In this document: positions 29,470 to 35,167 of the stretch, piece by piece
Layout: each line of letters starts with the position of its first letter
How positions within the stretch are numbered: position 1 is the stretch's first letter
NCBI GenBank assembly: GCA_964610875.1
Contig: CAZSWP010000001.1
Span: 64,001 to 128,000, forward strand
From: an uncultured archaeon
GTDB lineage: Archaea; Asgardarchaeota; Thorarchaeia; Thorarchaeales; Thorarchaeaceae
Length of the DNA: 64,000 nucleotides
Direction of reading: 5' to 3'
Translations under genes and position numbers: made by a program
Notes under the pieces: generated by a model
Database searches by the model: none
Seen by the model: only the letters and a program-made list of their open reading frames with translations
What the model was told of the DNA's origin: nothing

Positions 29470-29616
29470 TCTTCTCCCTCATAGGATAGGTTATCCTATG
29501 GCGAATGAAACCTCATAATAAGGATTCCTGTTCATGATTACCAAAATCTGTCAGGAAATATGCATCGACTGAACATGAGAACTCTGCAAGGGGACCTTAG
29601 ACCCTTAGGAGGGTCC

Positions 29617-29913
29617 TAAGAACGAACGCGGTTACGCTTTCTGCGCGGTTGGACGCAAGTCGTTATCGCAGCCTACAAGCAGTTGGTTAATGAGTATCAG
29701 TCCGGTCCTGAGGAATGGAAGAAGCAGTGTCAGTACGGACAGAGGAATCTTGTGGAGACCGTGTTCAGCATGCTGAAGCTACGGTTCACCGGGAGCCTGA
29801 GTTCGAGAAGAGCTAGACAACGTCGGAGAGAGATCTTGATCAAGGTGGTCCTGCACAACATCCATCGACTCAACCAACTGGAGTGTGCTGGGAGATAATT
29901 TATTTTACAGGGC
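29617..29913 (+). mobile_element. Truncated IS5-like DDE transposase remnant
   Basis: YGQRNLVETVFSMLK (Y-x2-R-x3-E-x6-K) C-terminal motif; no N-terminal catalytic region; locally higher GC; possible right end TTTTACAGGGC. Confidence 0.75.
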
Positions 29914-31386: not shown

Positions 31387-31732
31387 TATAATGATGAACA
31401 TAATTCAAATCAAGGATTCAAGCTTTCTTCAAATCAACTTTATAGAACGCGTTCGTTACCTAGTTCTAGCTAAAGGATTTACTAAGGACAGTTCATCTAT
31501 CATTCATACTTTTCATTAGTTCCGCCCCTATTTGTTTTACAGCATCCATGCTGTGCCATTTTCTAGTTTCGCACATGCAACTCACAGTTATACCGTTTTT
31601 CAGCATGCAATTGGAGAAAATCTGAACTAATATTACGCGAACTGTCTAGTGACAAGCTTTTTTAGTCACACAACAATTTCCATCATAAGTTGCGCTTTTG
31701 AAATAGAATAGCGGGACTGGAGACGGGAAACT

Positions 31733-32872
31733 ATGCCTGTTGCGATGCTCCTAATTGACTGGGACTCCAAAGTTGGAGCAGTATTGAAAGCCAAAGTTCC
31801 GAATGATTTTGCGGACTATTACCGTGAGGACTTGAATACTGAAATTATGCGTATTTTCACCTCTCATGCCATGGGTGATGCAGCTGCTGGATTCGCATCT
31901 CTGAGTATTAGAATTGGAGGTGAAGAATACAATGTTGCATCATATTATACTGGCATTGTACGTGAAGAGGAACAATATTGTGTTTCATTATTGCTTACAC
32001 CTTCAGAGGACCCCAAAATCTACGAAGCTGCGATAACCTCTGTTGTTTCTCCAATAACTAACGCAGTTATTTCAATGACTGACCAAGAGCTTCAAGATGA
32101 ACTCGATAATACCTATCGACGAATTATACGATTGGCAGGAATGACCGATGAGTCAAGATTAGCCAGATTATTCTCTGACGAAGTTGCCAGAGCAGTTTTT
32201 CCAAAACTTTGGAAAGGAGGAATAACAAAAGAAGATCTTGAAGAATGGTTAAAAATGGTGACCGGTCTACCTAGTGTGAGTGTAGACTCCATCGTTGCAC
32301 CATTTGAGGAGCTAGGTATTGTAAAGACAGATTGGGTTGACGAAATCGGTAGGTCTTGCGTTTTCATGGTAAAAGATTTAGAAATCTTCAGAGCCCCTCC
32401 TCTGGTTTCAATGGAAGCCGCATCAGACATCATTGACCCAGAACTGGCAGCTGAGTATAAAGGAGAAGTGCTTGAATTCCTAACCGAATGGCAAAAGACT
32501 CCTGAAGATACTGTTGCAGTTGCAGAAATTCTTGCTGACCCTGACTGTTATGACACACTTAGTGTTCTGCGTAGACACCCAGCCAATATCGCAGAACTCG
32601 AAGCAACTCTCGGAATACCTCCGAAAGAACTCAAACAGGCTATTCAGACATTGAAGAAATACCGCGTTGTATCTGAGAAACGGAGAAAGGGTCCCTCTGG
32701 TGAATATGACAAATGGCTATTTCTCCTGAACGATATTCGAGTACGGTTATTCTTCCCTGAATATTTCTTGAGTACGCTAGTATCTGAACTTGAGAAGAAT
32801 CCTGATGACACACGAATGATGGAAATGGTACATCATCACCTCAGATTACTCCGTGACAATTTTCCACGATAG
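31733..32872 (+). CDS. uDENN/longin-like N-terminal domain + winged helices (NPRL2-like architecture)
   Basis: AMLLIDWDSKVGAVLKAKVPNDF resembles NPRL2/uDENN first strands; C-terminal NIAELEATLGIPPKELKQAIQTLKKYRVV wHTH. Confidence 0.55.
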   Translation: MPVAMLLIDWDSKVGAVLKAKVPNDFADYYREDLNTEIMRIFTSHAMGDAAAGFASLSIRIGGEEYNVASYYTGIVREEEQYCVSLLLTPSEDPKIYEAAITSVVSPITNAVISMTDQELQDELDNTYRRIIRLAGMTDESRLARLFSDEVARAVFPKLWKGGITKEDLEEWLKMVTGLPSVSVDSIVAPFEELGIVKTDWVDEIGRSCVFMVKDLEIFRAPPLVSMEAASDIIDPELAAEYKGEVLEFLTEWQKTPEDTVAVAEILADPDCYDTLSVLRRHPANIAELEATLGIPPKELKQAIQTLKKYRVVSEKRRKGPSGEYDKWLFLLNDIRVRLFFPEYFLSTLVSELEKNPDDTRMMEMVHHHLRLLRDNFPR

Positions 32873-32928
32873 GGCCAAATAACAAATCCCGAATCAGACT
32901 ATCTCGGATACAGGTATACAAAATAGAA

Positions 32929-33320
32929 GTCCAATGGCATGTTGAACGGATATTAGTTTCTGGTTAAGTTCATCGACCAATGGAAAGCCTTTTCGATATT
33001 TTGAAACTAGGAAGGTTCATATGGGCTCAATGTGGACGAAATATGACTTCCTCGGAAGTCATCTTCGAAAGCCTGACGCCATAACGTGAGGATTTACCCC
33101 CGTTATAGGAACTCAATTTCGCAACACACGGTTAAACGGTCCCTTGGATTAAGTCCCCGCTTAATCTATAGAGTTTCTACGCATTGGTCCCAAATCGCAG
33201 AGTTATCTGCGACATTGCGCATAACTGAATTCTTCCGCGCGTTATTGGAACAGGCTCTCCAAGGATGCGGATTCGGTTCACTTTTTGTGGTGAGCCGCTC
33301 CGTTTCCAAATTTGTTTTTC
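32929..33320 (+). ncRNA. Candidate large structured non-coding RNA of unknown class
   Basis: More than 10 complementary stem pairs, three long-range pairings, G-U pairs favouring the + strand, and a U-rich 3' tract (see findings). Confidence 0.55.
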
Positions 33321-33481
33321 AATGTCCGTTTCAGAAATGATATTTCATTAAGTAAGAAGAAGGAAGGACTGTACCAACAAAGACAAAATAGGACTATTAA
33401 CGAAGATAACACCCATAGATATAGAAATAGAACGGACAATGAAACCATGTATGACAATCTAAGTGTCCGTTAAGCGAACAG

Positions 33482-35167
33482 GTGACCCAAATGATTCATA
33501 ATACGTTCCTCGTGAAGATGTCTTCTAGAAGTATTGTTGCTTCGTCCCAGTACTGGCCAGTAGAAGTGTTAGAGGATGAGGTATTTGAGTTTCTAGGCAC
33601 AAGGGAGGATCTTAGAAAAGAAGAAGGGCGTCTTGCCAATCTGCCTCTGCTAATTGGAGATGACAAGTTTATCGGTGCTGATGTTGTCAAAGACTTGGTA
33701 CTGGTGTTTGTCAGTGACAAAGGAGAGGAAGAAGCCTCGCTTGATGATCGTATCCAATCTGCCGCTAAAATACTATCAAAACGTTTGGTTGAACATGGTC
33801 TATCTGATGTCCGTGAGAATTATGAATCTTTGATTGAAGGTGCTATCACTACTCGTCTGAAGATAGCTCTTGTTGGAGAGGGTGGTACTGGTAAGACTAC
33901 TACACTTCATCTCCTCCTCGGTGACACACCACCTCTACAATATGTGCCAACAATTGCTCTTAATCTTGAAACAGTCGAGAATATCCGATTTGGTAGTTAT
34001 TCTCTGGTTTTGTGGGACTTTGCTGGGCAGGAGAGATTCAGAACTCTCTGGAGGTTCTACTTCCATGGTGCGGATGTAATTTTTCTTGTATGTGACTCAA
34101 CCCTTAGAAACGTAATAATTAGTAAGGATATTCTCAAACTAATCAAGCGCGACGCTCCAAAGGTTCCTGTGTTCTGCTTAGCGAACAAGCAAGACAAACC
34201 TAATGCGATGAAACCAGAAGTTGTACAGAAAATATTGGGAGTACCAACTTATCCCATGGTTGCAATTGATAAAGGACGAAGAGATGAGATGTTACGTATT
34301 CTGATGACTGCTGCAGCACAGTATGTTGGTGTTGCATTACCTGATGTTCCTGCAACAGAATTACTACGATTTACTGATGAAGCTATCACTGATTTTGAGG
34401 AGATAGGAGAAGAGGAAGAAGAGGCAGAAGAAGACCTTGAAGAGGATGAGGAGTATGAGGTCATCTATGTAGATGAAGAAGGTCATGTAGTTGACGTTGA
34501 AGATGAGGAATATGAGATAATTGAAGAAGAAGAAGAGATTGAAGTAGAAGAAGTACCGAGTATAGAAGATGATGTAGCTATGGAAGAACTTTCTGCTGAA
34601 TCTCATGAAATGGATTTGATTAAAGAAGAAACAGAAAAAATCCTTCCAGAGAAGGAAGAAGTAACTGTAATAGAAGATGTGTCTGAGATTGATGTGGAAG
34701 AAGTTACAATTGAGGATGAAGGTGCAGTTGAAATAGAGATTGTGCCAGAGGCAGAACCGATTCAAGATGAAGAAGATGTATTTGAGGTTCCTGTTATTGC
34801 AGACACAGAAATTAATGATGATGGTCGTGACATTGCTAAGCATATGATTTTTGAGAAACTTGAAGCAGATGAGATAATTTCTGCAGAGATTGAGCGGGTG
34901 GATGAACAAGACATCGACAAAGCCATTGAAGCATTTTCAAGTGATGAAGCTCTGGAAAACGAAGATGATGAACCAGTTGATGTCATTGATACACAAACCA
35001 TGCGGGAATTAGAGAGTATCCTTAGTGCACCATGTGACAATGATGATGAAGACAAGGAACCTGTAACATCAGAAGCAGCAGAAACAAAAGAAGACAAAGA
35101 GGAAACTTACGAAGAGGAATTAGATGAACTTGATGCGCTTTTTGAGTACTATGGAAGTTCTGAGTAG
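33482..35167 (+). CDS. Longin-like domain + Arf/Sar-like small GTPase + long acidic tail
   Basis: GEGGTGKT, PTIALN, WDFAGQERFRTLWRFYF, NKQD; N-terminal ~120 aa longin-like; C-terminal ~260 aa very Glu/Asp-rich. Confidence 0.8.
   Translation: MTQMIHNTFLVKMSSRSIVASSQYWPVEVLEDEVFEFLGTREDLRKEEGRLANLPLLIGDDKFIGADVVKDLVLVFVSDKGEEEASLDDRIQSAAKILSKRLVEHGLSDVRENYESLIEGAITTRLKIALVGEGGTGKTTTLHLLLGDTPPLQYVPTIALNLETVENIRFGSYSLVLWDFAGQERFRTLWRFYFHGADVIFLVCDSTLRNVIISKDILKLIKRDAPKVPVFCLANKQDKPNAMKPEVVQKILGVPTYPMVAIDKGRRDEMLRILMTAAAQYVGVALPDVPATELLRFTDEAITDFEEIGEEEEEAEEDLEEDEEYEVIYVDEEGHVVDVEDEEYEIIEEEEEIEVEEVPSIEDDVAMEELSAESHEMDLIKEETEKILPEKEEVTVIEDVSEIDVEEVTIEDEGAVEIEIVPEAEPIQDEEDVFEVPVIADTEINDDGRDIAKHMIFEKLEADEIISAEIERVDEQDIDKAIEAFSSDEALENEDDEPVDVIDTQTMRELESILSAPCDNDDEDKEPVTSEAAETKEDKEETYEEELDELDALFEYYGSSE

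Follow-up and report, generated by a model that had tools for sequence, protein, structure and literature searches.

A conserved folded non-coding RNA in one family of Asgard archaea, possibly an antisense regulator of the gene beside it

The question raised by this locus is what occupies the 609 bp (32873-33481) between two genes of a Thorarchaeote whose genome is 95% complete. The window, that is the whole stretch of 64,000 nucleotides analysed here, is part of its contig C1. An earlier note had read in this gap a compact, pseudoknotted non-coding RNA of no known family, either ribozyme- or RNP-scaffold-like or a large cis-regulator, and the complementary segments that it listed are all present where it placed them. 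Gene order at the locus is kept throughout the family, with gaps that usually measure 400-690 bp, and in the sister family the corresponding gap is 115 bp long with 21% G+C. The genes on either side are the following.

31733-32872, + strand: upstream gene, candidate target, 379 aa, with a C-terminal winged helix and a longin-like N-terminal topology (low confidence)
33482-35167, + strand: downstream neighbour, Arf-like GTPase with an N-terminal extension and an acidic tail (Pfam Arf, E 3e-21)

Orthologs of the upstream protein are 81-91% identical across the genera of the family, its matches come almost exclusively from records named Thorarchaeota, and in the sister family it is still 64% identical, while identity for the GTPase is only about 65-82%. 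No named family was matched in Pfam and other searches. The structure model is poor (pLDDT 54), its sole confident part being a C-terminal ArsR/TFE-like winged helix with weak matches, and neither the NPRL2-like identity that had been suggested for this neighbour nor a longin one was confirmed. NPRL2-like proteins have been reported in most Thor genomes (bioRxiv 10.1101/2020.10.19.343400). Many genomes also encode paralogs of the upstream protein (24-28% identity), and further Asgard families have distant homologs of it. Elsewhere in the window, 29470-29900 contains many hairpins followed by a 71-codon ORF that resembles, by eye, the C-terminal remnant of an IS transposase, and ARAGORN called two tRNA-SeC genes in the genome.

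The stretch for which an RNA had been proposed (32929-33320, ~390 nt) does fold better than its shuffles, with z -4.5 on the + strand and -4.1 on the - strand, and the signal sits in 33043-33315 (z -6.7). Its first part, which had been described as a domain of the RNA (32929-33037), has a z of only -1.2, is not conserved and contains a probable promoter, and we therefore take it to be upstream DNA plus promoter. This leaves an RNA of about 270 nt.

33004-33023, + strand: predicted BRE and TATA promoter of the RNA, a conserved block inside the former first domain
33043-33312, + strand: predicted extent of the non-coding RNA (z -6.7; homologs in 25 of 26 family genomes; 5' end placed by TATA spacing, +/- 4 nt)
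33311-33320, + strand: U-rich tract, likely terminator

The predicted promoter is the most 5' of the conserved blocks and is followed by a spacer of ~22 nt that is not conserved. It looks like the promoters that 16S, 23S and tRNA genes have in Thorarchaeota and, scored with a matrix built from 23 tRNA promoters, is the top + strand site in the gap (99.5th percentile; the median homolog reaches the 99.9th). A pairing of this block with 33230-33 was considered and dropped, the block being BRE/TATA-like and the pairing score weak. Since the RNase P and SRP RNA genes begin 22-24 nt downstream of their TATA-like element, the 5' end of the RNA should lie near 33045. At the other end, the U tract noticed earlier recurs as a U-rich tail after the 3' hairpin in 56 of 88 homologs. 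The RNA usually starts less than 250 nt past the upstream stop codon, the distance grows to 700-850 nt in four lineages (one case containing a 188-codon ORF), and in several lineages unrelated ORFs have been inserted between the RNA and the GTPase gene. Because it has its own predicted promoter and keeps its position despite insertions on either side, the RNA is not the leader of the GTPase gene, and we infer that it is transcribed independently, with the ends predicted above. In several lineages (L058, L072, L074, L077, L088 and L116) the RNA is directly followed by a gene on the other strand that encodes about 230-320 aa and is, by eye, perhaps an acetyltransferase.

Homologs of about 185-270 nt are found at the same locus as in the window, in about 94 syntenic loci by profile search. 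In a set of 24 of them the mean folding z was -4.5 on the + strand, -2.9 on the - strand and +0.1 for the stretch upstream and over the promoter. A covariance model of the core gave one match each in 25 of the 26 family genomes searched and none in 124 other Asgard genomes of the phylum sample, and the RNA was not found beside the homologous genes in 26 non-Thorarchaeota loci from other Asgard families, with filters off. This model (R1) is mostly sequence (7 pairs), and diverged homologs with the same fold could escape it, so that homologs outside the family are to be read as not found rather than absent. A further 25 viral pattern matches were judged to be chance. Within the family the RNA was not found in genome G011, and its core is deleted at two loci, L100 (4140-4460) and L101 (4140-4350), where just the 3' hairpin is left; both retain the leader site of the upstream gene described below, and their close relative L049 has a complete RNA. 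The RNA spans 16 genera with its invariant motifs, as a single-copy sequence with fixed synteny. Judged by this comparative evidence, the gap contains a real gene, not described before, whose product is a folded non-coding RNA about 270 bases long, and nearly all members of one family of Asgard archaea, the relatives of the eukaryotic ancestor, have retained it.

As the earlier note had supposed, it belongs to no known class. Rfam gave no match in the core of the gap at E<=10 (one chance miRNA match, E 8.5, fell on the former first domain) and none at E<=1 in seven homologous loci. The archaeal RNase P RNA (RF00373) of this genome is on contig C12 (150 bits), with no match at the locus, and the archaeal SRP RNA (RF01857) is on C32, which bears out the earlier view that the RNA is neither of these. 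Box C in 1 of 88 homologs and CUGA in 46 of 88 speak against a C/D box sRNA or U3. An H/ACA guide is rejected by an ACA after the last stem in 17 of 88 and no conserved pocket, and a group II intron or derivative by GUGYG at the 5' end in 1 of 88 and no Rfam intron match. For a Y RNA, the partner gene Ro60/TROVE (PF05731) was not found in the 95%-complete genome; the long stem joining the ends around a pyrimidine-rich loop is alike, but the stem sequence is not conserved here and there is no Rfam match. Single copy and fixed synteny speak against a MITE or IS end. An ORF of 84 codons at 33086-33340 was also rejected, the lengths from anchor to anchor falling in all three frames (45, 37 and 20), with no Pfam match. 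In the literature, we found no description of a conserved regulatory RNA family in Thorarchaeota.

The homologs support a covarying predicted fold. A closing stem of ~20 bp surrounds a loop that displays near-invariant motifs; the other elements are the hairpin GGAACUC/GAGUUUC and, at the 3' end, a hairpin followed by a U tail.

33043-33062, + strand: optional 5' hairpin, missing from many homologs
33067-33092, + strand: closing stem P1, 5' arm, closes the main domain
33097-33105, + strand: near-invariant single-stranded motif CCCCGUYA (CCCGT invariant in 45 of 45 aligned rows), complementary to 16S h28
33108-33177, + strand: hairpin P2 (33108-14 with 33171-77), whose loop carries GGUCCC copy 1 and a lineage-specific hairpin (33145-33168)
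33138-33143, + strand: GGUCCC copy 1, candidate seed in the P2 loop, invariant in 45 of 45, mean predicted unpaired probability 0.71
33186-33191, + strand: GGUCCC copy 2, after P2; AGUCCC, GGACUC or GGUUCC in some lineages
33195-33212, + strand: P3, variable optional hairpin
33215-33222, + strand: conserved motif UUGCGCAU, inside P1
33234-33259, + strand: closing stem P1, 3' arm, pairs with 33067-92
33263-33307, + strand: 3' hairpin P4, with the conserved GGAUGCGG as its 5' strand; two-sided changes in 6 of 14 pairs

The covariation is of the type expected for an RNA. In 84 of 88 homologs P1 reaches 8 bp or more (median 20), with arms that vary widely in sequence and several pair types at each position, and its cognate arm duplexes reach -28.2 kcal/mol vs -17.0 for permuted partners. 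P1 escaped column-wise mutual information on the anchored alignment, which was noisy, since the two arms of the stem align poorly. P2 is 98% paired, with two-sided changes at three pairs, and its exchanges between G-C, G-U and A-U therefore fix the + strand, the one favoured earlier. The hairpin at 33145-68 is optional, like P3 and the 5' hairpin, and a GCGCAU/GUGCGC hairpin without two-sided changes was replaced by P1. GGUCCC is found in loops, in 1 to 5 copies per RNA, mostly 2.

This fold, in which P1, P2 and P4 covary across the homologs, retains part of the one drawn in the earlier note. Three helices of that note find no support in the alignment of 45 homologs, namely the closing stem AAACGG/CCGTTT (53% of cells paired), CCTTGGA/TCCAAGG (51%) and ATAACG/CGTTAT (66%). 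Two of its three pseudoknots are pairings that are simply nested: GGAACTC/GAGTTTC is P2, and AGCCTG/CAGGCT is the outer part of P1. The third (32975-82 with 33182-89) is not conserved and has its 5' arm upstream of the predicted promoter. A compact ribozyme-like fold is not favoured either, the conserved core being largely single-stranded motifs on a long stem, an arrangement that fits an RNA that pairs or binds better than a compact ribozyme.

What such an RNA could pair with is suggested by its only repeated near-invariant motif, GGUCCC, the complement of which, GGGAC(C/U), is conserved in the leader of the upstream gene.

31651-31665, + strand: BRE/TATA predicted for the upstream gene, which gives it a leader of about 50 nt
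31713-31722, + strand: candidate target GGGACU (31713-18) in the leader of the upstream gene, with the Shine-Dalgarno GGAG (31719-22) next to it

No other 5-mer of this leader is as well conserved as GGGAC (73 of 87 loci; the Shine-Dalgarno 5-mer is kept in 69 of 87). It was found at the leader position in none of 20 paralogs, and neither in the sister family, which is without the RNA, nor in G011. The variant AGUCCC is confined to a clade in which the site is mostly GGGACU (10 of 12), representing one or two events, and in G013 a GGUUCC in the RNA stands opposite a GGGAAC in the leader. Altogether the candidate compensatory changes between seed and target amount to two or three events, and permutation tests are weak: comparing cognate and permuted duplex energies, copy 2 gives p 0.02, copy 1 is worse than permuted and the sum gives p 0.27, among kin that are not independent. 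About eight genomes have GGUCCC without the leader site (G004, G012, G019, G029, G026, G035, L116 and L120). The seeds are mostly predicted unpaired (0.71 and 0.63), the predicted pairing of the target is 0.41 vs 0.57 in shuffled leaders, and that of the Shine-Dalgarno is 0.72 vs 0.61. The duplex is short, 6-9 bp (7 bp in the window genome), and ranks 89th of 3272 gene starts in the genome. GGGACY sites across the genome show no clear enrichment, and a wide regulon is not evident. Two further occurrences may be recorded here. Near the start of the upstream gene, the codons for Asp-Trp-Asp (31756-31764) create another GGGAC, seen in 57 of 86 orthologs, which may be an additional site or may simply follow from conservation of the protein. 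Seed 1 with its flank (33138-33148) is like the bases just 5' of the BRE in several Thorarchaeota 16S promoters, a likeness that is not conserved and probably due to chance.

Because its repeated loop motif complements the mRNA leader of its neighbour, the RNA is probably regulatory. The interpretation to which we incline, giving it slightly less than an even chance, is that of an RsaE-like antisense regulator of the translation of the upstream winged-helix (wHTH) gene. The small RNA would be transcribed independently from its own promoter, P1 (long and variable in sequence) and P2 would hold two or more GGUCCC motifs open, and these would pair with the GGGAC(C/U) directly 5' of the Shine-Dalgarno, altering translation. 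A block to ribosome loading would be somewhat likelier than an opening of the Shine-Dalgarno stem of the leader. That the pairing occurs in the cell, its sign, and any help from Sm-like proteins are what we infer; three LSM-family genes are present in the genome (G000 C9, C16 and C25). At the sequence level we find several features of small RNAs with C-rich seeds, namely a predicted promoter and terminator, a conserved motif predicted to be unpaired and a conserved site at the ribosome-binding site. CCCCGUYA and UUGCGCAU, both invariant, fall outside what the antisense interpretation accounts for.

Precedents are known from Firmicutes and from archaea. In RsaE an unpaired UCCC motif blocks formation of the initiation complex (PMC2790875), and the RNA described here is like RsaE/RoxS and other Firmicutes small RNAs with UCCC motifs in being intergenic and in having several unpaired C-rich motifs facing a G-rich stretch at the ribosome-binding site (PMC2790875). 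However, it has no sequence or Rfam relationship to them, has an archaeal promoter and a long closing stem, aims its GGUCCC beside and not at the Shine-Dalgarno, and, unlike the RsaE/RoxS regulon, has one conserved candidate target, which is adjacent. Among archaea, sRNA154 and sRNA41 of M. mazei mask ribosome-binding sites (PMC5867862), and Methanosarcina sRNA154, sRNA41 and sRNA162 are likewise intergenic small RNAs whose loops mask such sites (PMC5867862). Those are described as conserved within Methanosarcina, whereas the Thorarchaeota RNA spans 16 genera, and no homology between them was found. This is an undescribed RNA family, likely a new form of the base-pairing small RNAs.

Several alternatives to this antisense interpretation have to be weighed. 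CsrB and RsmZ are protein-titrating RNAs with GGA repeats. In a similar fashion, the GGUCCC loops and the other invariant motifs might bind a protein, perhaps the winged-helix neighbour or an Sm ring, making the RNA a scaffold or sponge. We regard this as unlikely, yet as the most serious of the alternatives: the number of GGUCCC copies is variable, as is that of the single short motif in the loops of CsrB/RsmZ, the motifs are displayed on a variable stem and stay invariant where the mRNA site has been lost, and the neighbour does have a winged helix. However, the motif is not that of CsrB/RsmZ, the copies are just 1-5 and the mRNA bears their complement and not the same motif. A scaffold leaves unaccounted this exact complement, conserved in the neighbour's leader and shifting with the motif, and no Ro60/TROVE gene was found in the genome. 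Alternatively, GGGAC/GTCCC could be a DNA operator for a transcription factor, e.g., the winged-helix neighbour, found once in its own leader and again, repeated, downstream, or the RNA could be mainly the 3' UTR of the upstream mRNA, pairing with the 5' leader in cis. The motif is indeed present at both places on opposite strands, the weak winged-helix matches are ArsR/TFE-like and the RNA usually starts within 250 nt of the stop codon. Yet the motifs occupy the loops of helices that show G-U exchanges and compensatory pairs, a promoter-like block and a U tail belong to the element itself, and it persists with 700-850 nt to the upstream stop, once including the 188-codon ORF, all of which makes this improbable. 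A ribozyme or other compact, pseudoknotted catalytic RNA, for which one could cite the invariant nucleotides in a multi-branch loop and a possible 4-bp long-range pairing CCGU/ACGG (97% paired), appears very improbable: that pairing shows no two-sided change, competes with P4 and is broken in the genome analysed here, the pseudoknots of the earlier note were not borne out as pseudoknots in any of the three cases, and there is no Rfam ribozyme or intron match.

One of the invariant motifs left aside by the antisense interpretation could have a partner in the ribosome. CCCCGUCA would pair with 16S h28 beside the central pseudoknot, with shorter matches to h6, h15, h39, h44 and h45, and the RNA would then be an assembly chaperone or ribosome-binding RNA acting like U3 or snR30, to which it is alike in size and in having a conserved single-stranded motif complementing small-subunit rRNA near the central pseudoknot. 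Complementarity of 9-12 bp to h28 is found in most of 29 cognate pairs, nine pre-16S sequences gave 12 cells scoring at least 7 vs 3.9 +/- 2.2 in column shuffles (no excess for pre-23S), and the RNA is kept family-wide in single copy. Nevertheless, none of the seven sites compared shows cognate covariation (p 0.2-0.8), h28 being a nearly invariant target, and the best helix score, 9.3, is within the shuffle range (maximum 9.6). The h28 match is broken in three genomes with the rRNA unchanged, the h6 match is broken in genus g10 and lies inside P4, and searches of other Asgard families did not find the RNA, although the rRNA sites are conserved there. Unlike U3 and snR30, it has no C/D or H/ACA boxes, no Rfam match and no rRNA covariation, and is restricted to one family. 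Antisense to h6, h15, h39, h43, h44 or h45 was rejected by the lack of cognate covariation, and antisense to pre-23S by the lack of an excess of matches. We hold this ribosomal function to be about as improbable as the operator or 3' UTR, and a shade less probable again a combination, a housekeeping RNA with several partners in which an invariant motif would act on 16S h28 and the GGUCCC loops on the mRNA leader, as assembly chaperone or as adaptor between mRNA and ribosome; if true, this would be a functional parallel to eukaryotic U3-type RNAs in an Asgard archaeon. As for the rRNA loci of Thorarchaeota themselves (L161-L200, L213-L228), at most of them 16S and 23S each have a promoter of their own and a long structured leader. 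A conserved K-turn-like hairpin opens the 16S leader, and a CCCCGUYA/UGACGGGG pair, similar to the first motif of the RNA, is present in leader and trailer.

The fold of this RNA is backed by covariation, its promoter is predicted, and its candidate target can be named and tested: a highly conserved Asgard-type wHTH protein encoded beside an Arf-like GTPase. The invariant motifs that the antisense interpretation does not explain would allow a more unusual role. If the pairing with the leader is real, archaea related to the eukaryotic ancestor would control a putative signalling module of eukaryote-like type at the RNA level.
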